Shown here piece after piece: positions 1,034 to 47,137 of a stretch of 64,000 nt of DNA. The position numbers and the translations under genes are program-made. The stretch's first letter is position 1. The number at the start of each line of letters is the position of its first letter. The notes under the pieces were generated by a model. It ran no database searches. It saw nothing but the letters and a program-made list of their open reading frames with translations, and was not told where the DNA came from. This stretch comes from Dendrobates tinctorius (lineage: Eukaryota), in the NCBI RefSeq assembly GCF_039654945.1, contig NW_027361829.1:59272001-59336000 (forward strand), given 5' to 3'.

Positions 1034-1212
1034 TGAATTCTGCTTCTTTTAGTGAAGAGGCTACAGCACTTTCATGAGTTTTACAATCCCTTCAAACAGC
1101 TTATGTTCGAGGTAGCCAAAAGTCAAATCCCCATTGGTCTAATATTGCTGACATATTCTAAAGGTAGACTATCAATATTGTCAAGTAATCTTGGACTGAT
1201 AACTTTAATTAC

Positions 1213-1308
1213 CTGGAGTTTCTTTTGCTGGATTTTGTCTTGTAGAATTGAAAGGCACTTTGTAAAATCAGTGAAGTCTTGGTCTGGTGTTTCCAGGAAT
1301 TCACATCC
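1213..1308 (-). CDS. TPK1: Thiamine pyrophosphokinase 1, next internal coding exon (96 nt)
   Basis: Minus strand: tttgtatgtttatag|GGA TGT GAA ... CTC CAG|gtaatt = GCEFLETPDQDFTDFTKCLSILQDKIQQKKLQ. Matches TPK1 GCELISTPDQDHTDFTKCL and joins in frame with the 20111-20183 exon. Confidence 0.95.
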
Positions 1309-5788: not shown

Positions 5789-6170
5789 GGCTATGTGCCC
5801 ATGTAGCATTTTTTAAACGCTCAGGAAACGGGTTCTCCTTCCCAGAAAACGCATGTTTTTTTTCCACGCGTTTTTGCAGCGATTTTTCCGCTTTTTTTGT
5901 GCCAAAACACGCGTTTTTGATGCGTTTTTTCCGCGCATCTTTTGGACTATAGGAAATGGCCAAAAACACGGACCTAAGCAGAAATTAATGAACATGCTGC
6001 GTTTTTTACCGCTACGCGTTTCCTTAGCGGTAAAAAAACGCATCCATTGGCACAAAAAGGCCAAAATGCATTTAAATGAATGGGATGCTTCTTTTAAGCG
6101 TTTTTGATGCGGTTTGAACCCGAAAAACACATTAAAAATGCTTAAAAAAACGCTACGTGGGCACACAGCC
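5789..6170. mobile_element. PIF/Harbinger-type MITE, TTA TSD
   Basis: tta|ggctatgtgcccatgtagc ... gctacgtgggcacacagcc|tta; same family as 45362-45738. Confidence 0.85.
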
Positions 6171-6980
6171 TTACACTGTTTTTCACCAACAGTACTTCTT
6201 GCTTCTCTAGTCCCAAATTAAGGCTGTTTTACACATATCTTTTTGCCTTTTTCCCAGAATCACATAGCCTTTCCCATATTTCTTGGTCATTCTAGTTTTA
6301 CTGCAGTATGCTGTGTTTTCTAATGAATTTACATATCAATAAAAATCTGTATTTTATTTTTCAATTTATCTTGCTTTGCTTTTCATTTGAGGTTTAGCAA
6401 ACATAGGAGACTGCCAATTGAGAGGTATAAAAAGGTGTTCACTGATGTAATAATAGCAAGTCCTTTACAGAAAATGTACTTTCTAGAAAGTCTGTGGGTG
6501 CAGTCCTCCAAACGCAAAGTACTTTTTAATATTTTATTAGGGTGACTTTCCAATGAGAAGTCATAGTGATTGAGAACTGTGTATAAAAAAAAGTCCTGAA
6601 CATACTATAGATCTTTGACTATACTGTAGTATTCTGCTTCTGCCAAAAATTGTGAAGAGTGATATACATTGGACTTTGGAATGGTTTTACTGTTCATCTA
6701 CTTTAATAGACTGAAACTCTACACAAATCACTGTCCATCATTATTGGAAAATTTGTTGTGTACGCTTTCACCTTGGTAGAAATGAACAATCAATTAACAA
6801 CCTTTGTGTGCAAAGAGCTCTATGAATATTAGATGGCACACATATCTCATTTAAGCAAGCACACAAGCACCATGACTGTGACCAGGGGCCGCCAAGACAG
6901 GTAAATAGTGCTTACTGTATGAAGGTGATTACATTGAAAACCTAATTTTAATATCAATTAGAAGATGTTCATACTATTGT

Positions 6981-7940
6981 TGTTAGGCGTCGGGTTCCTG
7001 TCGCTGCACAGCAGGAATCCCGAGCTTTACTTCCGGTGGTCTCCTATTCCTCTCCAGCCGCAGAGGAGGTTGCTCAGCAAACTCGTCGGTCCCGGTGCTC
7101 TGCCCAGACCAGCTCCATGGGTTTGCTTGCTGCTGCCACCTCTGGCACAGCTATGGCAATGCATGCTGCTCAGCAACGAGATTCTCCAGGGACTAAGTCC
7201 CCATGTCGGGTCACTGAGCATGCCTGTGGAGTGATCTCTCATTGGAGATCAAGGGTCACGTGCTCAGGTCCTGCTCGTGTTCGGATTGGTCCATCCGAGA
7301 AGGAAGGTCCCAGACGCTCGCGGCTATAAAAGGTTCGCATGGCCGCTCGGCCATGCGCTAGGATAGCCTGTATTTTCAGACTTTTAAGGAGTGAGTGGTG
7401 TATGCATGTATGAATGTCTCTGGTGACTGACTCATTATGAAACCCCTACCCTTGGTATGCATGTGTTGTGCAGCCTAGACTGCTAGCACCCAGGCTTAGG
7501 TGTAGGTAGGTCAGAGTTTGAGTCAGGCATTAGCCATCATCAGTGACTCGGCATGCCTCAGTGCCCCGTGCTCCACACTCCATAGTCAGCGTTTATAGCG
7601 GCGCTCGTGGCAGCGACGCAGTGCGCTCAGTGAGCCTAGAAAGACTCTAACCCCGTGTCCTTAGGGTAGAGTTCTGTGGCCGCTTGCTGTGAGCTCTTTG
7701 GCCGGGCTCTGTGAGTTAAACAGGCTCCGGCATCCACGTTCAGCGGCTGTGCGGCTCTGTGAATTTACAGAGTCAGCTCCTGTTCACATTGGGTGACGTA
7801 ACCCACGTGTGACTGTTTTTACGCCGCTCTATTCTTCCACCATTACTTAGCAACAGTGTACCACCTCTGTACGGTGGACCCCGGGCTGCGAACGCACCTA
7901 CTATTATTTTATAATTTGGTGCGTTCCGCCAGTCCTAACA
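6981..7940 (+). repeat. 5' LTR (960 bp) with TATAAAA at 7325
   Basis: TGTTAGG...CCTAACA inverted termini; aligns with 12938-14456. Confidence 0.92.
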
Positions 7941-7941
7941 T

Positions 7942-7952
7942 TATCCTAGCGC
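7942..7952 (+). promoter_or_regulatory. Self-priming PBS (tatcctagcgc), complementary to the predicted transcript 5' end at 7355-7365
   Basis: No TGG tRNA-type PBS. The reverse complement gcgctaggata occurs exactly 30 nt after the start of the LTR TATA box. Confidence 0.85.
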
Positions 7953-7996
7953 CAGGGTCTGGCTAGTAACAGCGACTGCTGCAGAACATTCAGCAA

Positions 7997-8833
7997 ATGC
8001 AGGGCAGATTGGCGGCTCTCGAGCATCCAGCCTCAGCTGCGGATGTTACTGCGGTCGCTGTTCAGGCAGCCACAGAGGCTGTCTCCCGTGTGACCACTGC
8101 CATCCCTGCCCCGACTTTGTCCCGCCTCCCACTGCCCGAGAAGTTCTCGGGTGATATTGCCTCTTGTAGGGGTTTCGTGAGCTAGTGCTCGATACAGCTG
8201 GAGCTGCTGGCCGCACGATTCCCCTCCGAGTGGGCCAAAGTGGGATTTATTATTTCCCTCTTGTCGGGCAGGGCTTTGGAGTGGGCCACACCGCTGTGGG
8301 AGCGTGGTGATCATGTGGTGCAGAGTGCCTCTCAGTTCTTGGACACTGTGAAGCATGTCTTCCTGGGACCGCGAGTCACCCATGACACCGTGCTCCGGCT
8401 GCTGGCATTGTCACAGGGTTTGTCCATGGTCAGCCACTTTGCCATCCAGTTCCGGACGCTGGCCTCGGAGTTAGAGTGGCCAGATAAGGTCCTCATTCCG
8501 GCATTCTGGAGAGGTTTGGCTGGCCATGAGGACGCTCTGGCCACCAGTGAGATTCCTGCTACACTGGAGGAGCTTATCACCGTCTCCACCCGTATAGACC
8601 TTCGCTTTGCCGAGCGAAGGTTGGAGCGGTCCCAGTGTAGGCAGAGGTTTAGGATGGCATCCAGTTTTGCTAAACCTCTGGAATCTCCCGATCGGGCATC
8701 CGAGCGTCAGGTGGCTTCCCGCAAGGGATCCAGGCCCCGGCCCGCTCGACCCCTGTGATCTGTCATGGTTGCCGACAGTCCGGTCACTTTGCCAACCAGT
8801 GCCCACAGCGGCTGGGAAGGCGCTCGCCCCTAG
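7997..8833 (+). pseudogene. gag (Retrotrans_gag, PEG10/RTL1-like capsid + CCHC knuckle), disrupted
   Basis: LPLPEKFSGD...CRGF, KVGFIISLLSGRALEWATPLWE, CHGCRQSGHFANQCP; in-frame TAG at 8183 and a frameshift near 8700-8755. Confidence 0.9.
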
Positions 8834-11800
8834 TGGCCGTAGGAGGCGGCTCACTAGAATCCGCTGCATTTTCCTCCAAGTTGTCCTTTAAGGGGACACT
8901 TGGGTTTGGTTCTTCCACTCTGGCGGTGGAGGTTTGCGTGGATTCCGGAGCGGAGGGTAATTTTATGTCATCTGCTTTTGCTCAACGGCACACGATACCA
9001 CTGCTTATGATGTCCAAGCCAGTCACCATCAGTGTAGTGAATGGCGCGACTCTGCCCTCACAGATTACCCACCAAACCGCACCACTGTTACTCTCGGTGT
9101 CTCCATCTCATCAGGAGACGATACCCTCGGGCATGACGAGGAGGGATATCAACCAGGTCCTTCTAGGGATCCCCTGGTTGCGGTATCACTCTCCCCATAT
9201 AGAGTGGTCCTTGGGGAGAATTCTTGGTTGGAGTAAGTCATGTGAAGGTAGAGGTCTGAAGGAATGCGTCCAGGTTGCCTCCACCGAGGTCCCCGCAGAT
9301 CGTTCCTCACTTCCCAAACACTATCGACAATATGCGGACGTGTTCTCCAAAAAGGCGGCGGAGACACTTCCACCGCATTGCCCCTATGACTGTCCTATTG
9401 ACCTCTTTCCTGGTGCTGAGCCTCCCCGGGGTCAAGTCTATCCCCTCTCTCTCCCGGAGACAGAGGCCATGTCTCAATACATCAGGGAGAATCTGGCAAG
9501 AGGATTCATTAGGAAGTCAGTGTCACCAGTGGGGCGGGATTCTTCTTCATCCAGAAGAAGAGTGGGGAACTACGTCCTTGCATCAATTACAGGGGTCTTA
9601 ATGCCATCACCGTTAAGAATAAATATCCTCTACCCCTGATATCGGAGCTGTTTGATAGGTTACAGGGAGCGAAAGTGTTCACCAAACTTGATCTGTGGGG
9701 GGCTTACAACCTGATTCGCATCCGTGATGGGGACAAATGGAAGACGGCATTTAACACCTGACACAGGCACTATGAATATCTGGTGATGCCCTGCGGGCTC
9801 TGTAATGCACCAGCCGTCTTCCAAGACTTTGTGAACGATATCTTCTGGGATATGCTTACCACCTCAGTAGTAGTCTATCTGGATGATATTCTCATCTACT
9901 CTCCAGATATTGACTCCCACCGGAGAGATGTTTGCAAAGTTTTCGACCTCCTGTGGGGAAACTCCCTCTATGCCAAGTTGGAGAAGTGTGTGTTTGAGCA
10001 GGAGTCCATGCCTTTCTTGGGGTATATCATCTCTGCCCAGGGTTTGGCCATGGATCCTGCCAAGCTACAGGCGGTGATGGATTGGCAGGAACCCCATTCT
10101 CTCAAAGCGGTGCAGCACTTTATGGGGTTCATAAATTACTATCGCCAATTCATTCCCCACTTCTCAACTTTGGTAGCGCCCTTGGTAGCCCTCACCAAGA
10201 AGGGTGCAAACCCCAAGTTGTGGTCAGAACCTGTCTCCAAGGCCTTCTCCTCTATTAAATCCCATTTCGCTAGCGCTCCCATTCTACATCGCCCTGATGT
10301 GGATAAACCCTTCCTTATGGAGGTGGATGCCTCTTCCGTCGGTGCTGGAGCGGTCCTGTTCCAGAAGGACTCGCAAGGTCGGAAGCACCCATGCTTCTTC
10401 TTCTCCAAGACCTTCACACCAGTGCAGAGGAATTATTCCATTGGCGACAGGGAGTTGCTAGCAATGAAGTTGGCCTTTTCAGAGTGGAGACACCTCCTGG
10501 AGGGGGCTCGTCACCCTTTGCAGGTGTTCACCGACCACAAGAATTTGGTCTATTTACAAACAGCCCAGCGGCTGAATTCTCACCAGGCCAGATGGTCCTT
10601 GTTCTTCTCCCGATTCCACTTCACCCTGCATTTTCTCTCCAGGGAGAAGAACGTCTGGGCCAATGCTCTCTCCCGCTCCATGGTGTCATTGGAGGAGGAG
10701 CAGCCCTGGCTGATAGTCCCGTCTGAGAGCCTGAGGACCGTGGCTCCGGTCTCCCTTGAGTCTGTACCTCCGGGCAAGACTTTTGTCCCTGCCCAACTGC
10801 GACCGGAAGTCATCTCTTGGGCTCATTCGTCCAGGCTGGGTGGACATTTTGGGACCAAATGGACCTCTGAGCTTCTGGCGAGGATGTACTGGTGGCAGCA
10901 TATGGCCTGTGACGTCAGGGACTATATACGGGCATGCGTCTCTTGCGACCAGAATCGGCCCTCTCGGCAGCGGCACACTGGGTTACTCTATCCTCTGCCG
11001 GTTGCTGACAGGCCCTGGGAGATGGTCGGTATGGACTTTGTGGTGGATCTTCCCAAGTCCAGTGGCAGCACCGTCATTTGGGTGATCACCGATTATTTCT
11101 CCAAGATGGTGCATCTGGTACCACTCTCTCGGCTACCTTCGGCACGGGGCCTGGCAGCGTTGTTTATTAAATATGTTTTCTGCCTGCACGGCATGCCGGA
11201 TAAGATTGTCAGCGACCGGGGTCCTCAGTTTGTGTCTCGGTTCTGGAGAGAGCTCTGTTCTCTGCTCAGCATAGAGCTAAATCTCTCCTCGGCCTATCAT
11301 CCCGAGACGAACTGGTTGGTTGGGAGAGCCAACCAGACCCTGGTGACATATCTGCGACATTTTGTCTCGGCCAGGCAGGATGATTGGGCACCCTTGCTGC
11401 CGTTGGCGGAGTTCGCCTTGAACAACCCGGTGGCCGACTTCACCGCTCAGACCCCATTCCTCTTAAATTACGGCCAGCATCCGCGCGTCCCCGTACCCAT
11501 GCCCGTGTCGTCCACCGACTCTAGGGTGGCAGACTGGGTGGTGGAGGCACGTGACATTTGGGATCGCATGCAGGATGCTATCCGGGCCTCCAATGAGAGA
11601 ATGAGGTCCTCCGCTGACACTCGTCGGCGCCCGGCTCTAACCTTCGCCCTTGGTGACATAGTGTGGCTCTCCGCTCGAAAAAAATCAGGCTGCGGGTGGA
11701 ATCCGCTAAGTTCACACCGCGCTATATTGGCCCTTTCAAGGTCCTCGAGCAGATCAACCCTGTGGTCTACCGCCTGGCTCTTCCACCACACTTGACTATC

Positions 11801-11960: not shown

Positions 11961-12803
11961 GGCTGGTTTCACACTTGCGTTTTTTGCGCTGTACTTTAGC
12001 GCTAAAAAACGCATGCGTTTTTTCCTATATTTTGCATGGGATGCGCTTATGTGCGCATGCACATACGTTTGTATGCGTTTTTCCGAGCATGCGCTTTTTT
12101 GTGGTGTGCGCTCGGGCGCACAAAATGCATCCTGTTGCATTTTTTGAGCGTCCGACTTGCCTCAAAAAAACGCATGCGCGCGCAATGCGTTTTTTTTACA
12201 GCAAGACACCCATTATAAGTCTATGGGTGCGCATATGTGCGCATTGCCATGCTCATGTATGCGTTTTTTTGCGCATGCGTTTTTTGTTGACCATTAGTTA
12301 GATAATGGAATTTAGGGGTTTGGGTTAGAGTTAGTGTTAGTTAAGGGGGTTTAGGGTTAGTGTTAGTTAAGGGGGTTTAGGGTTAGGGTTTGGGTTAGTA
12401 TGGTTTGGTTAAGGGTTAGGGTTTAGGGTTAGTTAGGGTTTATGGTTAGGGTAGGGTTAGGTTAAGGGTTAGGGTTAGTATGGTTTGGTTAAGGGTTAGG
12501 GTTAAGGTCAGGGTCAGGGTTAGGGTAAGATTTGGTTAAGGGGTAGGGTTAGGGTCAGGGTCAGGGTTAGTAAAGTCATGGCTTGGGTTAGTGTGAGGGG
12601 CCAACTAATGTTGGAAAAAAACGCAAACGCGGTAAAAACGCACTAAAAACGCATACAAACGCATAAAAACGCTGCTTTTTTTCATGCATGCTCATAAAAA
12701 TGCTTGAAAAAAAAAGCAGCATTTGTATGCATTTGTATGTGTTTTTTCCATGCTTTTTTTGCAGGAAAAACGCGCTGCAAAAAAAGCAAGTGTGAAGGTA
12801 GCC
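11961..12803. mobile_element. Harbinger-type MITE with internal degenerate (TTAGGG)n, inserted in the chromodomain
   Basis: tta|ggctggtttcacacttgc ... gcaagtgtgaaggtagcc|tta. Removing it restores TAC TTA GTG GAT TGG (YLVDW). Confidence 0.88.
12310..12592 (+). repeat. Degenerate telomere-like (TTAGGG/TCAGGG) array
   Basis: Repeated gggtta/gggtca units seen directly. Confidence 0.85.
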
Positions 12804-15727: not shown

Positions 15728-18700
15728 CCGCTTCACCCCCAAGGGTGGTTTGCACGTTCATGACCGGGCCAATTTTTACAATTCTGACCACTGTCCCTTT
15801 ATGAGGTCATAACTCTGGAACGCTTCTATGGATCCCGGTGATTCTGACATTCTTTTCTCGAGACATATTGTACTTCATGATAGCGGTAAAATTTCATTCA
15901 AATAACTTGCGTTTATTTGTGAAAAAAAATGGAAATTTGGCAAAAATTTTGAAAATTTTGCAATTTTCCAACTTTTAATTTTTATGCCCTTAAATCACAG
16001 AGATACGGCACACAAAAAACTTGATAACTAACATATCCCACATGTTTACTTTACATAAGCACAATTTTGGAACCAAAATTTTTTTTTGTTAGGAAGTTAT
16101 AAGGGTTAAAAGTTGACCAGCGATTTCTCATTTTTACAACACCATTTTATTTTTAGGACCACATCACATTTGAAGCCACTTTGAGGGGTCTATATGATAG
16201 AAAATACCCAAAAGTGACACCATTATAAAAACTGCACCCCTTAAGGTGCTTAAAACCACATTCAAGGAGTTAATTAACCCTTTAGGTGCGTCACAGGAAT
16301 TTTTTTGAATATTTAAAAAAAAATGAACATCTAACTTTTTTTCACAAAAAAAATATTTCAGGTTCAATTTTTTTTATTTTACCAAGGGTAACAGGAGAAA
16401 TTGGACTGCAAAAGTTATTGTTCAATTTGTCCTGAGTACGCTGATACCTGATTTGTGGGGGGGAACGACTGTTTCGGCGCATGGCAGAGCTCAGAATGAA
16501 AGGAGCGCCGTTTGACTTTTTCAATGCAAAATTGGCTGGAATTCAGATCGGACGCCATGTCACGTTTGGAGAGTCCCTGATGTACCTAAACAGTGGAAAC
16601 CCCCTACAAGTGACTCCATTTTGGAAACTAGACCCCCCCAAGGAACTTATCTAGATATGTGGTGCGAACTTTGAACCCACAAGGGCTTTACAGAAGTTTA
16701 TAACGTACAGCGGTACAATTAAAAAATCATTTTTGTGGAAAAAATATGATCTTTTCACCCCAATTTTTTATTTTCCCAAGGGTAACAGGTCCCTAAAAGT
16801 TATTGTGCAATTTGTCCTGAGTATGCTGATACCCCACATGTGGGGTAAACGACTATTTGGGCGCATGGCAGAGCTCGGAAGGAAAGCAGCGCCATTTGAC
16901 GTTTTTGGCTGGAATTGAGATCGGACACCATGTCGCGATTGGAAAACCCCTGATGTACCTAAACAGTGGAAACCCCCCACAAATGACACCATTTTTGAAA
17001 CTAGACCCCCTAAGGAACTTATCTAGATGTGTGGTGAGAACTTTGAACCCCCAAGGGCTTCACAGAAGTTTATAACATAAAGCCGTACAATTAAAAAATC
17101 ATATTTTTTCCACAAAAATGATCTTTTCACCCTCAATTCTTATTTTTCCAAGGGTAACAGCACCCTAAAAGTTATTGTGCAATTTGTCCTGAGTACGCTG
17201 ATACCCCACATGTGGGGGTAAACCACTATTTGGGCGCATGGCAGAGCTCGGAAGGGAAGAAGCGCCATTTGACGTTTTTGGCTGGAATTGAGATCGGACA
17301 CCATGTCGCGATTGGAAAACCCCTGATGTACCTAAACAGTGGAAACCCCCCACAAATGACACCATTTTGTAAACTAGGCCCCCCAAGGAACTTATCTAGA
17401 TGTGTGGTGAGCACTTTGAACCCCCCAGTGCTTCACAGAAGTTTATAACGCCCGGGCGTGAAAATAAAAAATTTGTATTTTTTCCACAAACATGATCTTT
17501 TAGTCACCATTTTTTCTTATTTTCCCAAGGGTAACAGGAGAAATTGAACCCCAAAAGTTGTTGTCCAATTTGTCCTGAGTATGCTGATACCCCATATGTG
17601 GGAGAAAACTACTGTATGGACACACGTCAGGGCTCGGAAGGGAAGTAGTGACGTTTTGGAATGCAGACATTGATGGAATGGTCTGCGGGTGTCATGTTGC
17701 CTTTGGAGAGCCCCTAATGTACCTAAACAGTGGAAACACCCACAAATTACCCCATTTTGGAAACGAGAACCCCTAAGGAACTTATCTAGATGTGTGGTGA
17801 GCACTTTGAACCCCCAGTGCTTCACAGAAGTTTATAATGCCCGGGCATGAAAATAAAAAAATCGTATTTTTTCCACAAACATGATCAATTAGTCGCCAAT
17901 TTTTTCATTTTCCCAAGGGTAACAGGAGAAATTGGACCGCAAAAGTTGTTGTCCAATTTGTCATGAGTACGCTGACACCCCATATGTGGGAGAAAACTAC
18001 TGTATGGACACACGTCTGGGCTCGGAAGGGAAGCAGTGCCATTTTGGAATGCAGACTTTGATGGAATGGTCTGCGGGTGTCATGTGCGTTTGGAGAGCCC
18101 CTGATGTACCTAAACTATTGAAACTCCCCACAAGTGACCCCATTTTGGACACTAGACCCCCCACGGAACTTATCTAGATGTGTGGTGAGCACTTTGAACC
18201 CCCAAGTGCTTCACAGAAGTTTATAACGCTCGGACGTGAAAATAAAAAAATCATTTTTTTCCACAAAAATGATATTTTTGCCCCCAATTTTTTATTTTCC
18301 TAAGGGTAACAGGAGAAATTGGACCCCAAAAATTGTTTTGCAATTTGTCCTGAGTAGGCTGATACCCTACATGTGGGGGTAAAACACTGTTTGGGCACAT
18401 GGCAGAGCTTGGAAGGGAAGGAGCACCATATGACTTTTTCAACTCAGAATTGGCTGGAATTGAGATCAGACGCAATGTTGCATTTGGAGAGCCCCTGATG
18501 TGCCCAAACAGTGGAAACCCCCAATTCTAACTCCAACCCGAACCCCAAAACACCCCTAACCGCAATCTCAGCCCTAACCCAAGCCCTAACCCTAACCCTA
18601 ACCCTAACGGAAAAATGGAAATAAATACATTTTTTTAATTTTATTATTTTTCCCTAACTAAGGGGGTGATAACGGGGGGTTTGATTTACTATTTATGGCG

Positions 18701-20110: not shown

Positions 20111-20183
20111 CTTCTTTGTGTAGAAATCCTTCACCATTGACTGTATGGAATCAAAGTCTCCACTTATGAAATCTGGTAGGTAT
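20111..20183 (-). CDS. TPK1: Thiamine pyrophosphokinase 1, internal coding exon (73 nt)
   Basis: Minus strand: ttttgtttcctgtttag|A TAC CTA CCA GAT TTC ATA AGT GGA GAC TTT GAT TCC ... ACA AAG AAG|gta = YLPDFISGDFDSIQSMVKDFYTKK. Matches vertebrate TPK1 [24 protein letters not shown] (GDFDS motif). Canonical AG/GT; ends in phase 0. Confidence 0.95.
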
Positions 20184-24420: not shown

Positions 24421-24429
24421 CAAGAAGGG

Positions 24430-24890
24430 GAATAGAATGGGGCACATTACACCTGGAAATGGACCAGGATGGGCCACATTATATCAGGATGAGTCCTTGA
24501 TACGGCGATTATACTACGATGGAGAACATTACCAAAGGAAAAGGACCAGGATGGGACATATTATATTAGGAAGGGGACCAGAATTGGGAATATATCAGGA
24601 TGGGGAACCAGAATGGTGCAAATTATTTCAGGCAGGGAACTACGATGATGCACAATGAACTAGGATGGTGTTCATTATACAAGGAAGGAGACCAGGATGA
24701 ATAATATTATACTACAGTAGAATGGGGAACATCACCATAGGAAGGAGACCAAGATGGGGCACATTATATCAGGAAAGAAATCAGGATGAGGCACATTAAA
24801 CCAGGAAGGTGAACATTATACATAGAAAGGGACCATGACAGGAGATATTATCCCAGGGGACAAGTATGGGGAACATTATTACTTGAAGAG
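24430..24890 (+). repeat. Degenerate ~32-bp minisatellite (ggaccaggatggggcacattatatcaggaa)
   Basis: Repeated accaggatg / cattat motifs. Confidence 0.65.
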
Positions 24891-24932
24891 GTGTCCCTTA
24901 TTATGTACAAATCCTTTCTAGTCCATTATTAT

Positions 24933-25950
24933 AAAAAAACACATTTGAAAGGTTGACTCACCAAACCCTGACTAATGCACTAGCAGGATGCAGCAGACCT
25001 CCATTGATAAAGGCTGGGGCAGCACAGGTGCAAACCACTGATGAAAACAGCCAGTAACCCAAGATGGTCTGGCTGCCTAGTGGAAAAAATGCACACAAAT
25101 AGGGCTTGCATAGGACATCAGTCACACAGATAAGTGTGGTGCAAAGTGTCTGAACAGCCTATTAATGACGCCCATAGTATTAGCAGGTGGGCTGCTCAGC
25201 ACTATATATTTTTTACCACACTTATCTGTGTGACTGATGTCCTATGCAAGCCCTATTTGTGTGCATTTTTTCCACTAGGCAGCCAGACCATCTTGGGTTT
25301 CTAGCTGTTTTCATAAGTGGTTTGCACCTGTGCTGCCTCAGCCTTTATCAATGGAAGTCTGCTGTATCCTGCTAGTGCATTAGTCAGGGTTTGGTGAGTC
25401 AACCTTTCAAATGTGTTTTTTTTAATTTTTGGGAATTTTTTTCTTATGTGCGCTGTTCAGATTTAGTGTTAGGGACTTGCAAAATTTGGGGACCCTTGAC
25501 ATTGGGTTGCGAGTCTATCTGCTTTGGCCAAAATAGTAACTAATACCCCATATCTTTTTATCTTTTTGCACTTTTTTATCATTTTTGCAGGATGCAGCTA
25601 GACCTCTTTATGTTGGCTTGGTTTTTCCTGTGTGATGCATATATACATTGCTGAGCAGCCCACCTGCTAATACTATGGGCATCATTAATAGGCTGTTCAG
25701 ACACTTTGCACCACACTTATCTGTGTGACTGAAGTCCTATGCAAGCCCTATTTGTGTGCATTTTTTCCACTAGGCAGCCAGACCATCTTGGGTTACTGGC
25801 TGTTTTCATCAGTGGTTTGCACTTGTGCTTCCCCAGCCTTTATCAATGGAGGTCTTCTGCATCCTGCTAGTGCATTAGTCAGGGTTTGGGGAGTCAACCG
25901 TTCAAATGTGTTTTTTTTGAATTTTTGGGAATTTTTTCCTTATGTGCGCT
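24933..25950. mobile_element. Retroposed 494-nt monomer: inverted head (24933-25203) plus 1.5x direct tandem (25216-25950); Penelope pLTR-like
   Basis: accacacttatctg at 25216 and 25710; 13-bp TSD agtccatt(a/t)ttat at 24920-24932 and 25951-25963. Confidence 0.75.
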
Positions 25951-27999
25951 AGTCCATTTTTATGTAGCGTCCTCTATGTACAGTGCTTTCCCATTATTAC
26001 AAAGTAATATGTCTTATATACAGCACTGCCCTTACTTACATTATTCTCGTTATTTTTGCTAATCACATTGCCTTTTCTTTATTATATAGAGTGCTCCCTT
26101 GTTAGATATAAAATCAAATTACTGCAACGTGTGTCCAGAAGACCAGTACATCAGCTGACTACATCAGAAAAGAAACTTTTCCATGTTACATCAGCAGTCA
26201 TTTCAATTTATATCTAACAAGAGCGAACAGTACGTTATATAAATGGATAACAAAATAATAAGAGAATACAACATGTAAAGGATGTTGCTGTACATAAGAG
26301 ATGATACTACTGTATGTAATAAGGGGGGGCAATATACTTAATGAGAAGAGACTATGTAATAAATATATATACATATACGCACTTATATACACACACATAC
26401 ATAGATACACATACACATTACATACACATGTATCTTGGTCACCATAAAAGGAGGGTGCCCAATCCCATTTCTTGCACAGGGGCCCCAAGCTGTCAGTGTC
26501 CGAACCTGGGGCGAGATACTTCAAAAAATTGCTTGTGGCCATAATATGGATGTGTGATAGAATCCTAGCTTTCCAAGGCGGGGGGAGAGGTATTCCAGCT
26601 ACGATGCCCAGATTTGAGCTAACCGGTGTTTTTTTTTTATAAGAGACCTTTAAGTTGATCATTAAATGACTATGCATTACTATCAGCCCAAGATGCAGGT
26701 CTTACATGGTCATTCATGTAACTGCTTTTCAGTGGACACTATTGATATTAATTGCTGTGACTGTTCCAATAATCTAGGTAGATTACATACTTTCTCATTT
26801 TCAAACATATACTTAATTTACAGTACCTAACAATTTTTATTTCTCATTTTGAATATTTTATACCTAATTTATATTAAGCCATTTAAAAATTAAGCTAAAA
26901 AATAACTGCATCAAAAGTAATGTTATCTTCATTCTATAGACCTAAACTAATAAATGACTTTTTACATTTTATTATCAGTTTTGGTAACTTACATGAAAAC
27001 AAAGAACATTAGTCAGCCCATTATGAATTACGGATGATCTCTATGAAAACGTAGCTACTATATACTCAATACAGCATTGCGGTAAATGTATTAAAAATGA
27101 TAAAAGGAAAACTTTTCCGGACAGATTTATTGAGTTAAACACTACTGCATTTTGATATTATTAAAAATTAAATAAAGAAAATGAATTTGGCTCAAATACA
27201 TATCATAATACATGAAAACTCAATAAAAATCAATACAAAAAATTCCAGTGGGGTTTAATACTAAAAGGGAAGATGTCAGGATTAAGGAGAAATGGGTAAT
27301 TGCGAATGTAAAAAACACTATCAGGGGAGTTTCAATTAAAAGACAACAAGCCATACGTTTAATTAGAAAGAGGAAGCATTGCAAAGCCTACAGTTTTTAC
27401 ATAAATAAGATGTAATCCTTATTAACCTGCAGAGAGCATAATAGGCAATCCACCAATGTCCTGTAGAATACTAATGCATTCAGTTTCGCTCTACACATTC
27501 CATTTGGGATCTATTAACAGTAATGTTCACTTCTCAATCACTAAAGAAATAATGTTTGCTTTTTTAGATTAACCATTTATGTGCTTTCTTAATACGAATG
27601 TGTAAACTTACAAATGTTACATAAGGCAGAAACTAAAGCAATTCATATATTCTATGATAAATTAGCAATGTAAATATACTACAGTCAATACCTAAAGCAA
27701 AAGAGCATACTAATGAAAGTGATGAAACTAATGAAAATTACAGTACTTTAAATCAGTCTGAAATGAAAAAAATATATATAACACAACAATATCTAGCAAA
27801 AACAATTCGAGTGAACTATTCCTTGACTGAACTAAACAAGGAATATAATACTATTACCAGTACATAAAATTAAGATTATACAACCAATCACCCAGCAAGC
27901 TAATTGTGCAAACTAAGGCCATCAATTTGAAAGCAGTATGAGGAGAGTATCTATGAAATCAAATGGAGTACACTACTGCAAATGCTACTGTATAAAAGC

Positions 28000-34523: not shown

Positions 34524-36135
34524 CACTACCGTTCAAAAGTTTGGAGTCACCCAGACAATTGTGTTTTCCATGAAAACTCATACTTTTATTAATCAAATGA
34601 GTTGCCAAATGAATTTAAAATCTAGTCCTGACATTGACAATGTTTGAAAAACAAAGTTTTTTTATTTGAAATAATAATTTTCTCCTTCAAACTTTGCTTT
34701 CACCAAAGAATACTCCCTTTGCAGCAATTCCAGCATTGCAGACCTTTGGCATTCTAGCAGTTATTTTGCTGAGGTAATCTGGAGAAATTTCACCCCATGC
34801 TTCCAGAAGCCCCTCCCACAAGTTGGTTTGGCTTGATTGGCACTTTTTGCGTACCATACGGTCAAGCTGCTCCCACAAAAGCTCAATGGGGTTGAGATCT
34901 GGTGACGGCGCTGGACACTCCATGACAGATAGAATACCAGCTGCTTGCTTCTTCCCTAAATAGCTCTTGCATAATTTGGAGGTGTGCTTTGGGTCATTGT
35001 TCTGTTGTAGGATGAAATTGGCTCCAATCAAGCACTGTCCACAGGGTATGGCATGGCGTTCAAACTGGAGTGATAGCCTTCCTTATTCAAAATCTCTTTT
35101 ACCTTGTACAAATCTCCAACTTTACCAGAACCAAAGCAACCTCAGACCATCACATTACCTCCACCTTGCTTGACAGATGGCGTCAGGCACTCTTCCAGCA
35201 TCTTTTCAGTTGTTATCCATCTCACAATTGTTCTTCTGTGTGATCCAAACACCTCAAACTTGGATTTGTCTGTCCATAACACTTTTTTCCATTCTTCCTC
35301 TGTTCAATGTCTGTGTTCTTTTCCGATATTAATCTTTTCCTTTTATTAGCCAGTCTCAGATATGGCTTTTTCTTTGCCACTCTGCCCTTAAGGCCAGCAT
35401 CCTGGAGTCGCCTCTTCACTGTAGACGTTGACACTGGCGTTTTGCGTGTACTATTTAATGAAGCTGCCATTTGAGGACCTGTGAGGTGTCGATTTCTCAG
35501 ACTACAGACTCTAATGTACTTGTCTTGTTGCTCAGTTGTGCAGCGGGGTCTCCCACTTCTCTTTCTATTCCGGTTAGAGCCCGTTTGTGCTCTCCTCTGA
35601 AGGGAGTTGTACACGCCGTTGTAGGAAATCTTCAGTTTATTGGCAATTTCTCGCATGAAATAGCCTTCATTTCTAACAAGAATAGACTGTCGAGTTTCAC
35701 ATGAAGGTTCTTTTTTTCTGGCCATTTTTAGAGTTTAATGGAACCAACAAATGTGTTGCTCCAGATTCTCAACTAGCTCAAATGAAGGTCAGGTTTATAG
35801 CTTCTCTAATCAGCCAAACTGTTTTCAGCTGTGCTAACATACTTGCACAACGGTTTTCAAGGATATTCTAACCATCCATTAGCCTTCTTACACAGTTAGC
35901 AAACACAAAATGCCATAAGACTCTGGAGTGATGGTTGTTGGAAATGGGCCTCTATACACCTATGAAGATAATGCATTACAAACCAGAAGTTTGAAGATAG
36001 AATAGTCATTTACCACATTAACAATGTATAGAGTATTTACTGAATCATTTAATATTAGCTTCATTGGAAAAAACTGTGCTTTTCTTTCAAAAATAAGGAA
36101 ATTTCTAAGTGACCCTAAACTTTTGAACGGTAGTG
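34524..36135 (-). mobile_element. Full-length (1612 bp) Tc1-like transposon, TA TSD
   Basis: ta|cactaccgttcaaaagttt ... aaacttttgaacggtagtg|ta. Confidence 0.93.
34687..35725 (-). pseudogene. DD34E Tc1 transposase, frameshifted, second catalytic D replaced by N
   Basis: MARKKE...GRPR...VAKKKPYL (ORF 35222-35725) and ILQQNNDPKH...[11 protein letters not shown] (ORF 34687-35031). Confidence 0.9.
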
Positions 36136-38415: not shown

Positions 38416-41400
38416 CCCCTTTCTGACATCCGACGTATAATTCCATCCATGTGACCTGGGCCTGTCTGACTATGCACGAAATAGTACGTCATTTCTTTAA
38501 TGCGACACTGAGACCAAACTCGCGGTGATCGCATTAACCCCTTAACTTCAATTGACGTAATATTCCGTCCATGTGACCATGGACCTAATTACCATGGACG
38601 GAATATTACGTCATCGCGATCAGCGGTGCCCACGTGGTGAGCGCCGCTGATCGCGGCCAAGTGTCAGCTAATTATCATAGCTGACACCCGGCACAATGTG
38701 TCAGGGGCGGTCACGGACCGCCCCCGACACGTTAACCCCTTGCACACCGCGATCAAACTCGATCGCGGTGTACCGGGGGTTAAAGGGAAGCATCGGCAGG
38801 GAGGGGGCTCCCTCCGTGCTTTCCTGAGCCCCCCACGGCAGCGCAATGTGCAGCGCTGCTGCCGGGGGCTCCTTTCCTGCAGGTCCCCGGATCGAATATG
38901 GCGACGGGGACCTCCGGGGGCCTGCAGGAAGCTGGCTTCCTCAGTGCCTGCAAAGCGCAGGCATGAGGAAGCCTGTGCAGTGCCTATGACAGATCGCTGA
39001 TCTGTCACAGTGATCTGTGATGTGACAGATCAGCGATCTGTCACAGGACAGTTATGTCCCCCCTGGGACATTGTAATAAAGTAAAAAAAAAAGTGTAAAA
39101 ATAATTTAAAAAAATCGCTAATTCAAAAAAAAAAAAAAAAATATTCCCCAATAAATTCATTTTTTGGAAATAATAAAAAAAAACAAAAAACAATAAAAGT
39201 ACACATATTTGGTATCGCGCATCCGTAACGACCCGCCCTATAAAACTGTCCAAATAGCTAACCCCTTAAGCGAACCCCTTAAAAAATAAAAATAAAAAAC
39301 GAAGCAAAAAAATAATGATTTATTATCACACCGCCGAACAAAAAGTGCAATAACGCGCGATCAAAAAGACGCATATAAATATCCATGGTACCGCTGAAAA
39401 CGTCATCTTGTCCCGCAAAAAACCAGCCATGATACAGCATCATCAGCGAAAAAATAAAAAAGTTATAGCTCGCAGAATAAAGTGATGCAAAAATAATTAT
39501 TTTTTATATAAAATTGTTTTCATTGCATAAAAGCACCAAAACATAAAAAACGACCTAAATGAGGTATTGCTGTAACCGTACTGACCCGAAGAATAAAACC
39601 GCCTTATAAATTTTACCACACCCGGAACGGCATAAACGCACCACCCAAAAGAAATTCATAAAACGCTGGTTTTTGTTCATTCTGCGTCCCAAAAAACGAA
39701 ATAAAAAGCGATCAAAAAATGTCACATGCCCGAACATGATACCAATAAAAGCGTCAACTCGTCCCGCAAAAAATAAGACCTCACATGACTCGGTGGGTCA
39801 AAATATGGAAAAATTATAGCTCTCAATATGTGGTGATGCAAAAACTATTTTTACAATAAAAAGCGTCTTTTAGCGTGCGACAGCTGCCAAACATAAAAAC
39901 CGCCATAAATAGTAAATCAAACCCCCCGTTATCACCCCCTTAGTTAGGGAAAAATAATAAAATTAAAAAAATGTATTTATTTCCATTTTCCCATTAGGGT
40001 TAGGGTTAGGGCTAGGGCTAGGGTTAGGGCTAGAATTGGGGGTTTCCACTATTTGCGCACATCAGGTGCTCTCCAAACGCAACATGGCGTCTGATCTCAA
40101 TTCCAGCCAATTCTGCATTGAAAAAGTCAAATGGTGCTCCTTCCCTTCCAAGCTCTGCCATGCACCCAAACAGTGTTTTACCCCCTCATATGGGGTATCA
40201 GATCAGCCTACTCAGGACAATTGGCAAAACAACTTTTGGGGTCCTATTTCTCCTGTTGCCCTTAGGAAAATAAAAATTTTGGGGCAAAAATATCATTTTT
40301 GTGGAAAAAAATTTTTTTGTTATTTTCACGCCTGGGCGTTATAAACTTCTGTGAAGCACTTGGGGGTTCAAAGTTCTCACCACACATCTAGATAAGTTCC
40401 TTGGGGGTCTAGTTTCCAAAATGGGGTCATTTGTGGGGGGTTTCCACTGTTTTGGTACATCAGGGGCTTTCCAAACGCGACATGGTGTCCGATCTCAATT
40501 CCAGCCCAAAAAGTCAAATGGCGCTGCTTGCCTTCCGAGCTCTGCCATGTGCCCAAATAGTCATTTACACCCACATATGGGGTATCAGCGTACTCAGGAC
40601 AAATTGCACAAAAACTTTTAGGGTCCTGTTACCCTTGGGAAAATAAAAATTGGGGGTGAAAAGATCATTTTGTGGAAAAAATATGATTTTTTAATTGTAC
40701 CGCTGTACATTATAAACTTCTGTGAAGCCCTTGTGGTTTCAAAGTTCTCACCACATATCTAGATAAGTTCCTTAGGGGGTCTAGTTTCAAAAATGGGGTC
40801 ACTTGTGGGGGGTTTCCACTGTTTAGGTACATCAGGGGCTCTCCAAACGCGACATGGCGTCCGATCAGAATTCCAGCCAATTTTGCATTGAAAAAGTCAA
40901 ACGGCGCTCCTTCCCTTCTGAGCTCTGCCATGCGCCGAAACAGTGGTTCCCCCCCACATATCAGGTGTCAGCGTGCTCAGGACAAATTGCACAATAATTT
41001 CTGCAGTCCAATTTCTCCTGTTACACTTGGTAAAATAAAAAAAATTGAACCTGAAGTAATTTTTTTTGTGAAAAAAAGTTAAATGTTAATTTTTTTTAAA
41101 TATTCAAAAAATTCCTGTGATGCACCTGAAGGGTTAATAAACTCCTTGAATGTGGTTTTAAGCACCTTAAGGGGTGCAGTTTTTAAAATGGTGTCACTTT
41201 TGGGTATTTTCTATCATATAGACCCCTCAAAGTGGCTTCAAATGTGATGTGGTCCGTAAAAATGAGAGATCGCTGGTCAACTTTTAACCCTTATATCTTA
41301 CTAACAAATAAAAATTTTGGTTCCAAAGTTGTGCTGATGTAAAGTAAACATGTGGCAAATGTTACTTATTAACTTTTTTGTGTGCCATATCTCTGTGATT

Positions 41401-41664: not shown

Positions 41665-43052
41665 TTAAACTTCCGGCGCCATCTTACCTGTGGGTAGATG
41701 GTTTTGGCATCCTGGGGGTGTCCCTGCCCACCCGGACTCATGAACACTGTGATAAGCTGTTCAATTCTGAACAGCCTATCGCAGCCTCTCTCATTGTTTC
41801 AGGCAATAAGATTGTATGAGAAAGTTGGGATATGTAGCTGGCAGATGAAGCAAAAGTTTGATCTTTCAGTGATTGTAGAGATGCTAAAAAGTTACAATCA
41901 CCAAAGTATCCATGTATAGGAAAAATCAGGTGTCTGAAACTTAGGTTGGATTAACATTTGTGGTTGGGTCCGCAGCTTTTATGCCACATTCATTCGCATG
42001 CATCTTGTTTTCCTATCTCTAACGTTGTGGATGCAGGTACATGCGTTCGTATGCTTTAGGCTGCATTTCACTACAAATGCGTTGTTTTGGGTTTTGCGGC
42101 TAACGCAACATGTTGCAATTTTGGAGGTGGCAATTTGCCGCCGCCAGACGCATGCAGCCGCTTGCGGAAGGAATGCGTCGAAACAATGCATTACAGTCTA
42201 TGAGAATGAATGTTTGCGCAAGCACACACGTTCGCTAGCATTTCCGTACGCATGTGTTTTTCCAGAGTAAATGTGTCTAGACACTGGTTAGCCAGCCCCC
42301 ATGCCTAGAAAGATAAAAAGAGGGTGTGGGCACACATTGTCCATTACTCTACAGACACTGGAGACTGCAAGACAAGAGAAGACATCTGTGAAGACACTGA
42401 ACTAAAGCCAAATGTGAGTATACAACCTAATATCTGTGTGTCTTTTGGAATTTTACTCTCTGCCGTCTGTAATATTCTGTCTCTTTCTTGCAGCATTCTT
42501 CAACATGCCCTCTTCAAGCCCTGAGCACACAGGACAGGATTCTAAAGTGTGTACCCTTGCAACTATGGTTGGTAAGTACCACTGAACATATGTGCCAAAA
42601 TCATCTTTTTTCTTTTATAGAACACTTCATCAAGTGGCCAGGATCTGGACCAACAGGAGCAGGAGCAACAGAGGGAGGCAGAGATATCGGTGGTCAGACG
42701 GCGTGTAAGTTTTTTTGGTATTTTTTTGGTGATTAGCTATTTTTTCTGTTTTTTTTTTTGTTTTCTGGGAGTGTTGCAACTTTTTCTGCCGTGGTTTTTT
42801 TCTTGGATTTTTGTTGTTTTTTCTGGGTTTTTTTGGTTTTTTTTCTTATGGGATTGTGGCTAATTTTTCTGCCGTGGTTTTTTTTTCTTGGATTTTGGCT
42901 GTATTTTAGTGGGGTTTTGTTATGGGATTGTGGCTAATTTTTCTACAGTGTTTTTTTTATTTTCTTGGAGTGTTGCTATTTTTTTTTTTTACTTTTGTTG
43001 GCCGATTTTCCTTGTTTTATCTTGACAACAGTAAAGTTTTATTCATTTCTAG

Positions 43053-44770
43053 GTTCCACAACAGGAGGAGGACTACATAGATAATGACCTCATCTCCCTC
43101 GTTCAGGAGAGAGTAGCCCTGTGGGACATCCGTCATCGTGACCACTCGGACATGGTGGTGCTTCGGCGTGAGTGGAATGAGGTGACCAAAAAGCTGATGG
43201 ATGACTGGGCCAACGATACACCAAGAGCCAGAAAGGACTTTCGTAAGTATTGCAATGTGGTCTGATGCGGCAGTGAACCTGTAAAGGCCGTGAGCACACA
43301 ACAGTGTGTGATGCGATAAACTCCTGCGAGTTTCTTGCATCACAAACAGTTGTGTGCTCACGGCATGAAGTGCATTGTTTAAAACATTTCTTTTATCCTT
43401 CACAGTGACCAAAGTCAAAACCCATTGGCGTTCAATGAAGGATCGCTTCAATAAGGATCTCAGACACAAGAACCAGGCTCGCAGAGGTAGTGGTGATGGT
43501 GTAGCAAGGCTCAGGAAGTACAAGTATCACCATATGCTGGCTTTCCTGAGGCCCGTCCTTGCTCAGATAACGTAAGTATTTTTGTGTTGGATTCAATTGT
43601 GTTGTGTTACCGAATATGATTTTTTCTATTCCTCAGGAGCTGGCGCTTGTAAAATTTATTGTTTTATGGTACTAATGTTTGGCTTTTCTTTTCACAGCAC
43701 ATGGAGCAGCACCCTGGAGCCTGGTTCGTCCTCAGGAGCGGTCCTTCAATGAACAGCCTCGGAGCAGTCCCAGGCATCCACCAGCGATGCAGCAAGTAGG
43801 CCTGCGTCACAAGCTGAAGAACAGGCAGCTGGCCCATCAGGTCTTCACCTGTCCCAGGCCTCCTCCGTCTCTTTTTTTTAATGTTGAGTCTTCCCGACAG
43901 CAGCAGAAGGCCTTGGACAGGACAGTCATGCCTGTGTTTCTACACTTGAGCTCGGTTTTCCAAGATGGCATGAAGTCAATGGTAGATAGACTGGAAAGTG
44001 TTAGGAGCCATTTTGACACACCTTTCCAGTCTGTCCATCAGCGACTTGACTGTCTGAAAACCGACATACAGAGGCCAGCACATCATTTTTTTCTGGCCAT
44101 TAAACGGGGCATGGCCGAAAACCTTACGCCTGAACTTCAGCTGAATGTGATGCAGGCCTGCAATACTGCATACGTTCAGGCTATACAGCAGACTCGTATG
44201 TACCCGCTGGCACCGGTTTTTCCCACTGTGCCACCAGTTACCTGTATGGCCACCACCGTGCCCAGGCCTGCTGCCATCCACTACAGTGCCTCCACCATGC
44301 CAAGTGCACTCAACCACCACGCCTACTCCTGCGCAGATTCCCACCGCCACCATCACCCGGATTCCTGATCCAGCAACACCGTCCACCGCCACAAGCACCG
44401 GGTCCTGCTTCCTCCACCACCACCACCACGCCTTCTTATCACATGAGTCAGAGGAGAAGAAGGACAAGCAGTCACCCAACACATGGGAGACAGAAGAAAA
44501 AGAGAAAGGAACCAATGTGGAAAAGGACAGTGGTGCTTCCTCCACCACCCTCATCTCCCAATGTTTCTGTTATGTCCAATTTGTCCCTCCCTTCTAATGT
44601 GTCTCCTCATCCCATATTTCCACTCCTAATGTGTCCACCTCCATCCTTGATCTCCCAGACCCCACACATCTTGTAGCTCCTTCACCCTGGCAACCCCTGC
44701 AGCGTCCACCCCCAGCCAGTCCTCCCATCTGCACACCCCCGTGGTCCGTAACATTTCCCCCTCAGTGTGT
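43053..44770 (+). pseudogene. Harbinger Myb/SANT-like (MADF) DNA-binding protein, spliced (exons 43053-43242, 43406-43571, 43698-~44770; probable short upstream exons 42350-42704)
   Basis: LISLVQERVALWD...W.EV...|LTKVKTHWRSMKDRF...YKYHHMLAFLRP..T|TWSS; canonical GT-AG junctions; premature TGA at ~43750. Confidence 0.85.
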
Positions 44771-45361
44771 AAAAAAAATTTTTTTTTTGTAAATAAACCT
44801 TTTTTTCTTTTCCCCATACCACTGTTTGTTTTTTTGTCTCTTTCGTCGCCGGCAACATACACTGTGCGCCGTCAACACACAAATCGCCTTATACACACAC
44901 TATTTTTTTTTCCACCTCATAGTTCCATAAAATACAATTTTTGTTTTATTTTTTGGATTTTTCTGTCATGTTAAATCTATGAGGTGTAAAAAAAACAGAG
45001 AGCTTATAATATTCACACCAAAAAAAAAAAAAGGTAAACAACAAAAATGGTCAGGGGTTTGCAATACTCAACTGTCCAGGTTTAAATACTTTTACAGTCA
45101 GGATGCTGTATTTTTCGGCATCCTGATTGCAGTAATTCTACACACGGGCTGGGGAGTAAATTTATGAGTTACATTTCCTCAATCATCTATTCAGTGTGCA
45201 TTTATATTTGGATATATAATGCAGACTGAAGAGATGATGGAGATCATGAGAACGAAACATATGACTGACACAGATAACAAGTTAAGTTTAAAGCATGGGA
45301 ACAAAAACAAAGGAAACAAGTGTTTTCAAAAAAATTATTTTATGTAACATCAAAACTATAA

Positions 45362-45738
45362 GGCTATGTGCCCACGTAGCGATTCTGAAGCAGAATAAAC
45401 CTGAGCAGAATCGCACACCCTGCTCCCAGGAAAACGCCTGTGTTTTTTGACGCGCTTTTGAAAGCGTTTGTAAAGCGTTTTTGCATGCGTTTTCCTAAGC
45501 GTTTTTGCCAATATAATTGATGGTATGCGGAATCGCACGCGATTCCGCAAAATTAATGAACATGCTGCGTTTTTAATCGCTAAGCTTTTCTGCAGTGGTT
45601 AAAAACACACCATTGGCACAACATGTGCGTTTTTCATTAAAAATCAATTGGATGCTTTTCTTAAGTGTTTCTGCAGCAGAATCGCTTGCCTAAAAGCGCT
45701 GCAGAAACGCTTAAAAAACGCTACATGGGCACACAGCC
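45362..45738. mobile_element. Harbinger MITE between the two convergent genes
   Basis: taa|ggctatgtgcccacgtagcg ... cgctacatgggcacacagcc|tta. Confidence 0.85.
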
Positions 45739-45790
45739 TTAAAGACAGGTAAACTTTGAAAAAAACATAACATTACATAAAAATTATACA

Positions 45791-47137
45791 TTAAACCATT
45801 GCATTTTGCCATGTCACACGTCCAACATCAGAAACAAAGTAGTCCTCGAATGCATCCCTCATTTCTGCAACTTCCCTTGTAGTCCTCAGAGGGTGATGCT
45901 GGTAATCTGGCAATGGGGTAGCAACTGGTTCGTCTAGTTCAAACGATGGTCGCTCTTTAGCCATTATGTAATTGTGGAGAACCACACAAGCCTTGAAGAA
46001 CTCATTCACTGTTTTAATTTTCAGATTAATTGCTGTACCTAGAATGCGCCATTTTGACACAAGAATACCAAAGGCACACTCAACAGTTCTGCGGGCCCTG
46101 GTCAGTCGGTAACTAAAAATCCTTTTTTTGTGGTTCAAGTCCCGACTGGAGTATGGCTTGAGTAGGTTTCCACACATCTGAAAAGCCTCATTCCCCAAAA
46201 ACAACAAATGACATTGGCGGTCGTGTTGTGAAGAGGTCGTGGGAGGGGGAAATGAAAAGTACTGGTACACAACCGTTGGCCCATGTCCGAGTTTTTAAAG
46301 GTTTGGGAGTAATTTCCACAGCCAAATGAACCGATGTCGACGGCAATGAAACTACAGTCTGCAGCTGCAATGGCCATCAGCACTATGGAGAAGTATTTTG
46401 TACAGTTAAAGTACTCGGATCCACTTTGAGCCGGTTTGGCTATCCTAATAGGTTTCCCATCCACTGCTCCCACACAGTTGGGGAAATTACAAACTTCCCA
46501 GAATTTTTCTGCATTTTCCAGCCAGATGACTGTGTTGGGTAGGGGGATAAATTCCTGACAAAGCACGTCCCACAAAGCCCGGAAAGTGTCTGCAACAATC
46601 CCAGAAAGTGTGGAAAGGCCTATCCGGAACGGGAAATGGAGCGATGATAGGCTCTCTCCAGTAGCCAGGAATCTGTCAAACAGAGAAAGCAAAATTTTTA
46701 AAGAATAATAATAACTACAAGGGTTTTTGAAAAAAAAAAAGGGACACTGCATACAATATGACAAGCGTGCGATTAGTTTTAAATATTACGTACCTTAGTG
46801 TCACCAACAGACGTTCCTCAGCTGGAATAGCTCTACGGAGGTGGGTGTCCTGTCTGCTGATTGCTCCCTCTACACGACCCAGCAATTCCTGGAAGCTCTG
46901 TTGAGACATCCTTGTGTATTCAAAATATTTGTCTGGGTTTTCACAAAGCTCACTGAATAAGGAGTGGTAGGCGCCAAGGCTCCCCCGGACTTCAAGAATG
47001 GGGTGTTGCCAAAAGTGCCAATGCCGTCTTCTGCTTCTTTCTCTTTCCCTTTCTTGGTCACAAGCAAAGGCAAAGGAAACAGCCAATTTGATATCCAAAT
47101 CCAGTTTAAATAAGAAACTCTACTTGGAAATATCCAT
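45791..47137 (-). pseudogene. Harbinger DDE transposase (HARBI1-like), exons 47137-46794 and 46672-45791
   Basis: EERLLVTLR|FLATGES across a 121-nt GT-AG intron; FPNCVGAVDG; GNEAF (catalytic D>N); RARRTVECAFGILVSKW; early TAG and a frameshift at ~46270. Confidence 0.92.

Follow-up and report, generated by a model that had tools for sequence, protein, structure and literature searches.

The locus described here raises the question of how about 1 kb of DNA, arranged as one and a half copies of a unit behind an inverted partial copy, came to lie in an intron of TPK1, and from what kind of RNA it was copied. The window, that is the whole stretch of DNA analysed, is 64 kb long. The insert is most likely a copy of a non-autonomous Penelope-like element (PLE), mobilised in trans by an autonomous PLE from an unspliced linear transcript of more than unit length, a reading that we hold with considerable confidence. 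Because no autonomous parent was found in the window, membership in the PLEs is argued from structure and not from homology.

Anatomy of the insert and its host gene

TPK1 lies on the minus strand and was identified by two exons that match PF04263 and PDB TPK1 chains; the insert is intronic, in the intron before the 73-nt exon 20183-20111. The features referred to below are as follows.

1126-1308, minus strand: frame with the TPK1 exon that comes after the 73-nt one (first ~32 codons); PDB TPK1 chains, E 3e-10 to 1e-9
20111-20183, minus strand: 73-nt TPK1 exon next downstream of the insert, bordered by AG and GT; PF04263, E 6e-6, as a fragment under the curated cut-off
24920-24932, plus strand: left target-site duplication (TSD), 13 nt, or 14 counting T24919
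24933-25209, minus strand: 277-nt pseudo-LTR, inverted and 5'-truncated, meeting the direct part head-to-head and without tail; reverse complement of 25641-25917 (96.8%)
24962-25076, minus strand: possible cryptic exon of 115 nt on the TPK1 sense strand, predicted from a weak acceptor (14/20 pyrimidines) to the donor at 24961
25210-25214, no strand: T5 linker at the head-to-head junction, absent from the unit
25215-25422, plus strand: direct pseudo-LTR copy 1, 5'-truncated, 208 nt, donor at 25394
25394-25590, plus strand: predicted spliceosomal intron, 197 nt, across the pseudo-LTR/body boundary, from splice signals
25423-25454, plus strand: internal copy of the tail, 32 nt
25455-25640, plus strand: unique body without ORF, made up of the remaining intron and 50 exon nt and passing into a TATATA tract; joined to the pseudo-LTR by diverged contigs in 4/4 runs
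25641-25917, plus strand: direct pseudo-LTR copy 2, 277 nt, ending 29 nt within the intron, donor mutated at 25890
25918-25950, plus strand: tail, 33 nt, at the right end only, ending 62 nt within the intron
25951-25963, plus strand: right TSD; an X1 contig (see below) matches 25923-26280 exactly

The insert thus spans the DNA between the TSD copies at 24920-24932 and 25951-25963. These read AGTCCATT(A/T)TTAT with one mismatch between them, as an earlier note on this DNA had reported, and a T at 24919 and at 25950 lengthens the duplication to 14 nt, yet the same T belongs to the unit. A 14-nt repeat with at most one mismatch and 3 nt of slack was found at 2 of 5000 random position pairs. The TSD is short, contains ATT and lies in AT-rich DNA; no empty target site was encountered. 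The direct part (25215-25950) consists, as had been claimed, of 1.5 copies of a unit, whose period is 495 nt instead of 494 and becomes 496 past a T-tract at which copy 2 carries an additional base. The inverted copy is also present, with a length of 277 nt and not 270. No poly(A) or simple-repeat 3' end is present in the insert.

The two ends of the insert are not equivalent. The inverted arm ends outwards at the equivalent of 25917 while the direct part extends to 25950, a one-ended extension of 33 nt, and both outer ends are intronic, 29 and 62 nt past the donor. The statement that the insert lacks terminal inverted repeats needs qualification, as the head and copy 2 form inverted repeats of 277 nt; these are not flush with both TSDs, being offset on the right by the 33-nt tail, and this offset is a diagnostic feature that the earlier note overlooked. 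The family majority has TATATATA where the pseudo-LTR begins (25640-25647), and neither local copy has the full TATA consensus. The fold of the pseudo-LTR is only modestly better than that of its shuffles (z -2.1; 4 of 100 shuffles equally good).

The GTGAGT donor of the inverted arm is intact at 24961, on the TPK1 sense strand where it had been placed. The inverted arm thereby supplies the TPK1 sense strand with a donor and, as predicted from splice signals, possibly with a cryptic exon of 115 nt, inside a 277-bp fold-back.

Intron signals and coding content

The unit carries a donor G|GTGAGT at 25394, a branch-like AACTAAT near 25540, a pyrimidine tract and an acceptor TTTTGCAG| at 25590, all of which had been recognised before; they predict an intron of 197 nt and an exon of 298 nt, rather than 297. 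The same signal set occurs in 4 of the 258 tiles of 495 nt across the window, the tiles of the insert being included in the count. In copy 2 the donor, which had been taken as intact, is mutated to GGGAGT (25890), where the family majority has GT. The joint of 25888 to 25591 is absent among the 15 joints listed out of 23, a comparison made on contigs only, in which joints are poorly detected: the tail-to-body joint appears at a depth of about 7-110 against a body depth of ~10,000 or more. The intron/pseudo-LTR depth ratios are 0.65 in X6 and 0.89 in X8 versus 0.38 in X1 and 0.53 in X5 (runs described below), and like the missing joint they speak neither for nor against splicing.

The absence of a long ORF from the unit is borne out, since the longest stop-free frame has 86 codons and none of the 12 frames of the insert gave a Pfam match, including to any reverse transcriptase (RT) of telomerase-like type or a GIY-YIG endonuclease (EN).

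A multi-copy family in public contigs

Contigs of four public runs were aligned to 25456-26280: X1 and X8 (both of organism label A, X1 perhaps being the source sample), X5 (B) and X6 (C), X6 being RNA by guess and X8 of uncertain kind. The numbers of contigs aligned were 1949 in X1, 1460 in X5, 166 in X6 and 53 in X8, some of which sit on flank repeats. In X1 the summed depth is 5,954-51,345 over the element versus 5.9 over the unique flank, a more than thousand-fold ratio which, while summed depth is no copy number, is most naturally read as thousands of copies. A high-copy family is thus present under three organism labels. In all four runs, contigs with 7-30 other letters pass from the acceptor region into the pseudo-LTR; with so many differences they must derive from other loci, and because these diverged contigs join the acceptor region straight to the pseudo-LTR, the ORF-less unit is a property of the family and not a local deletion. 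The tail-to-body joint is also listed in all four runs, a joint that a full-length parent would show as well, and strand switches at other positions account for 3 of the 15 joints listed out of 23. Together with the anatomy of the insert, these contigs agree with the earlier description of the insert as a small retroposed element that is non-autonomous, present in many copies and built like a PLE.

The median depth of the pseudo-LTR relative to the body is 2.5 in X1 (p 0.0008), 1.3 in X5 (p 0.03), 1.7 in X6 (p 0.009) and 1.6 in X8 (p 0.07, not significant), a step that is confounded by T-tracts of the body, which fragment contigs. The higher depth of the pseudo-LTR is as predicted from fixed 3' ends with 5' truncation. 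One X5 contig covers 25924-26223 with 5 other and 4 gap letters (97% similar) and begins inside the tail; this suggests that organism B shares the insertion in the TPK1 intron, the contig having 27 element-side letters, below our 31-letter rule for bridging.

Within the 64-kb window there are no other copies, the best match outside the insert being 36 nt of T-rich sequence (E 0.026), and no PLE ORF was found elsewhere in it. Searches with the unit gave 0 matches in metagenome contigs and 0 in viral contigs. A shorter pattern had yielded 89 loci, all of them chance, with 1 of 123 BLAST rows longer than 30 nt, at E 7.8. At 25617, two X6 contigs depart from the unit into ~67 unlike letters, and two joints start at 25622, in X5 and X6. 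These exits are a possible breakpoint toward a long parent element. The unit probably arose from a PLE by deletion of the ORF near 25617-25640, as a weak hint suggests.

Structural likeness to Penelope-like elements

The insert combines direct pseudo-LTRs (pLTRs) formed by a partial tandem, a head-to-head inverted 5'-truncated copy, a 33-nt tail and a TSD in AT-rich DNA. According to the description of rotifer PLEs in PMC3846280, two direct pLTRs with an adjacent inverted pLTR and an optional 31-bp tail lie inside a TSD of 8-10 bp, and PMC8557442 describes for PLEs in general partial tandems together with a 5'-truncated copy in inverted orientation and a tail of 30-40 bp, often at one end only; the same diagnostic layout is given in PMC8969392. 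The EN-bearing (EN+) PLEs (Penelope/Poseidon and Neptune, with Pen2a_Av, Drosophila virilis Penelope and Anolis PAc) resemble the insert in their two direct pLTRs and inverted pLTR, their one-ended tail of 30-40 nt, their TSD, their AT-rich target and, at the level of splice signals, their retained 5' intron, and Pen2a_Av as presented in PMC3846280 has TATATATA near the start of its pLTR, like the family majority here. The insert differs from them in having no RT/EN ORF and no detectable hammerhead, in 3' ends that lie within an intron and not within the start of an ORF as in PAc and Pen2a, and in a TSD of 13-14 nt compared with 8-10 nt in rotifer PLE copies.

Other likenesses are found in green algae. 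In the account of PMC8557442, Chlamys MRC1 is a non-autonomous PLE with pLTRs and head-to-tail copies, MRC1 and Chlamys-3_cRei share with the insert an ORF-less derivation from PLEs, and a 5'-UTR intron of Chlamys-3 crosses the pLTR/body boundary, as does the predicted intron here. The Chlamys clade is also mostly without hammerheads, like the insert. These elements are algal, whereas the insert is in a vertebrate, and the comparison is one of structure and not of sequence.

The host is a vertebrate, and the repeat landscape of the window resembles that of an amphibian. In a survey of retrozymes (bioRxiv 10.64898/2026.07.22.740005), the only PLE groups found in vertebrates are Neptune and Poseidon, and PMC8557442 describes the canonical hammerhead as a universal feature of Hydra and other PLEs with a C-terminal EN. 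The missing hammerhead hence counts against simple descent from Poseidon or Neptune; it may have gone with the deleted ORF, or may be too atypical for our descriptor. In the literature searched, to which most subscription papers, Repbase and Dfam do not belong, we found no description of a hammerhead-free, intron-bearing, non-autonomous PLE in vertebrates; four 16-nt words of the unit had no match in the literature text searched, and PMC12822217 treats Penelope only in bulk. The family may stand catalogued already.

Proposed mechanism

The properties published for active PLEs lead to a model of the insertion. The Penelope promoter is placed in the pLTR by PMC2377424, in which spliced as well as unspliced RNA is reported. 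In PMC11167929 the purified Anolis PLE protein, a predicted dimer, is described as cleaving and extending both strands at AT-rich sites with a preference for 5'-ATT-3' targets; the same source equates the tail with what lies between two internal start sites of RT, and finds that the PLE tested in vitro mainly uses uncut RNA as template. For the present insert, the promoter of an upstream pseudo-LTR would transcribe the intron, the body and the next pseudo-LTR into a linear RNA of more than unit length. A helper, presumably the RT with GIY-YIG endonuclease of an autonomous PLE acting in trans, would make staggered nicks 13-14 nt apart in AT-rich DNA, and each nick would prime RT at one of two internal start sites, 29 or 62 nt inside the intron, yielding one arm without and one arm with a tail. 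Both cDNAs would end early, being truncated, and would then be joined head-to-head via the T5 linker. As both putative start sites are intronic, a spliced RNA would lose them, which would favour retention of the intron at the 3' end; and since the internal intron is kept in the insert, the template was presumably unspliced there too.

Alternative explanations

It is very improbable that the insert is a satellite-like or LINE-dependent repeat retroposed by LINE enzymes, with an inverted head made by twin priming, which is the LINE mechanism for such heads. The insert does have a TSD of 13-14 nt and a 5' inversion, both typical of LINE-type insertions, but it lacks a poly(A) or simple-repeat 3' end, and its inverted arm repeats 208 nt that are also in the direct part, beginning 33 nt away from the equivalent of the 3' end instead of beside the 5' breakpoint. 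The marks of a LINE-mobilised SINE or retrocopy, namely such a 3' end and the loss of introns, are absent from the insert. A non-autonomous DNA transposon of the foldback or Mutator-like kind, families characterised by long terminal inverted repeats, would account for long near-terminal inverted repeats (277 nt, 96.8%) with a TSD. Against this extremely improbable origin, the right repeat ends 33 nt before the TSD, the tandem joint shows tail and body as one continuous stretch in 4/4 runs, and other copies switch strand at differing positions. We give practically no credence to a single-copy local duplication with inversion, which the earlier note had named as the outcome that would overturn its proposal, or to an assembly artefact: there is only one copy in the 64-kb window and assembly polishing could yield a near-consensus inverted arm, but against both stand the 1949 X1 contigs and the more than thousand-fold depth of the element relative to the unique flank, which exclude a single copy, and the X1 contig identical to tail, TSD and flank together with the 97% similar X5 contig.

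The earlier note had proposed that the template may be a circular RNA. A circle of the 495-nt unit, copied by rolling-circle RT in the manner of retrozymes and inserted in random phase, would produce a 1.5-fold tandem; PMC4209133 proposes a circular template for PLE tandems, and animal non-LTR retrozymes are presented as tandem elements derived from PLEs, with linear and circular monomer RNAs and a type I hammerhead as their defining feature (PMC7229834; bioRxiv 10.64898/2026.07.22.740005). Retrozymes are like the insert in being short, ORF-less, tandem and PLE-derived, short passengers of PLEs; their range of 51-972 bp includes the length of the unit, and that survey reports them from 7/7 amphibian genomes. 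They carry a type I hammerhead, whereas the insert instead has intron signals, an inverted head and a tail. A relaxed minimal-hammerhead descriptor modelled on the one in PMC4209133 gave no exact match to a hammerhead core, whether on one of the two strands or over the spliced junction, and Rfam at E up to 10 gave no ribozyme family, so that the statement that no canonical hammerhead is present withstands core, descriptor and Rfam searches alike. Three cores with one mismatch were found, all antisense, with helices of 2 bp and 3 bp. An antisense CTGATGA at the hairpin was rejected as a hammerhead, since 3 and 7 surplus bases surround its helix and helices I and III are lacking; the best Rfam matches, MIR946 and mir-2154, are far under their gathering scores, and the hairpin of the inverted junction accounts for both.

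Because no hammerhead was found, the insert falls outside the definition of a retrozyme. A back-spliced circle would measure 298 nt without the intron, yet the insert retains the intron; the two ends differ by a tail of PLE size, 33 nt as between PLE RT start sites; the depth is uneven along the unit; and the PLE tested in vitro in PMC11167929 used mainly uncut RNA. A circle is in any case needless for a 1.5-fold tandem, and neither route to one fits, because back-splicing would drop the intron and the searches gave no ribozyme. An ordinary PLE partial tandem with its pseudo-LTR accounts for the apparent circular permutation. A circular intermediate is therefore disfavoured, and we consider the rolling-circle origin improbable. 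The preferred reading is accordingly a linear, unspliced PLE transcript.

Uneven divergence of the three arms

One property of the insert is not explained by the PLE model with a single template. When private changes are polarised by the family majority, taken from the 40 rows listed of 171, their number is 0 in the 277 nt of the inverted arm, 6 in the 208 nt of copy 1 and 9 in the 277 nt of copy 2; the difference between the inverted arm (0/277) and the direct copies (15/485 nt, about 3% each) gives p 0.004 in a sign test and p 0.002 in Fisher's test, the asymmetry having been tested post hoc and at one locus. The body differs from the family majority at 6 of 185 positions. If the majority is left aside, 12 differences are found over the 208 nt that all three arms cover, and they split 6, 6 and 0 (p 0.02 for any arm with none). 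A rare allele at 25662, at a CpG and amounting to about 4% of the X1 depth, is carried by copy 2 as well as by the inverted arm.

Two RNA templates that come from separate loci would account for the asymmetry and may fit the extension of both strands by a dimer; the shared rare allele at 25662 counts against them. Later conversion from a young copy, or assembly polishing, may instead lie behind it. An extended reading, which we regard as tentative and rather unlikely, is that the family is a ribozyme-free, intron-bearing PLE 'SINE' with thousands of copies in one vertebrate lineage, whose RT starts are intronic so that splicing stops mobility, and whose head-to-head insertions derive from two different RNAs, one primed on either nicked strand, as the near-consensus inverted arm next to direct copies with 3% divergence suggests.

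Why PLEs keep introns and how their inverted ends and tails form are treated as open questions in PMC8557442 and PMC11167929. A short family of many copies with intronic 3' ends would make both testable from one assembly and, if the proposed reading is true, offers thousands of natural events that bear on inverted ends and intron keeping. The missing hammerhead further suggests that an abundant class of PLE-derived elements escapes surveys based on hammerheads. The surprise is limited by the architecture, which is that of a textbook PLE, and by the non-autonomous PLE derivatives already published (MRC1 in algae, retrozymes in animals).

Surrounding sequence

The right flank is itself repetitive, with a depth of 250-1,200 at 25960-26015, next to the TSD, and of about 6,000-10,000 at 26184-26239 (X1 and X5), and the element therefore inserted into another repeat or next to one. 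An inverted repeat of 46 nt extends across 26080-26239. Directly left of the insert, 24424-24880 is a degenerate minisatellite of 30-32 nt which, by eye, looks like the arrays at 1834-2736 and 3436-3634 in reverse complement. Long frames at 8186-11795, split into several, are presumably gag/pol-like and those of an LTR retrotransposon, a label given from their translation; we take the frame at 35222-35734 to resemble a Tc1-type transposase, and those at 43017-46785 to resemble a Harbinger-type transposase with a second gene. Tandem arrays at 16370-18608 and 53043-55674, with units of 373 nt and 389 nt, are each flanked by telomere-like TTAGGG/CCCTAA runs, and further telomere-like runs are found at 12316-12570 and 39994-40033.
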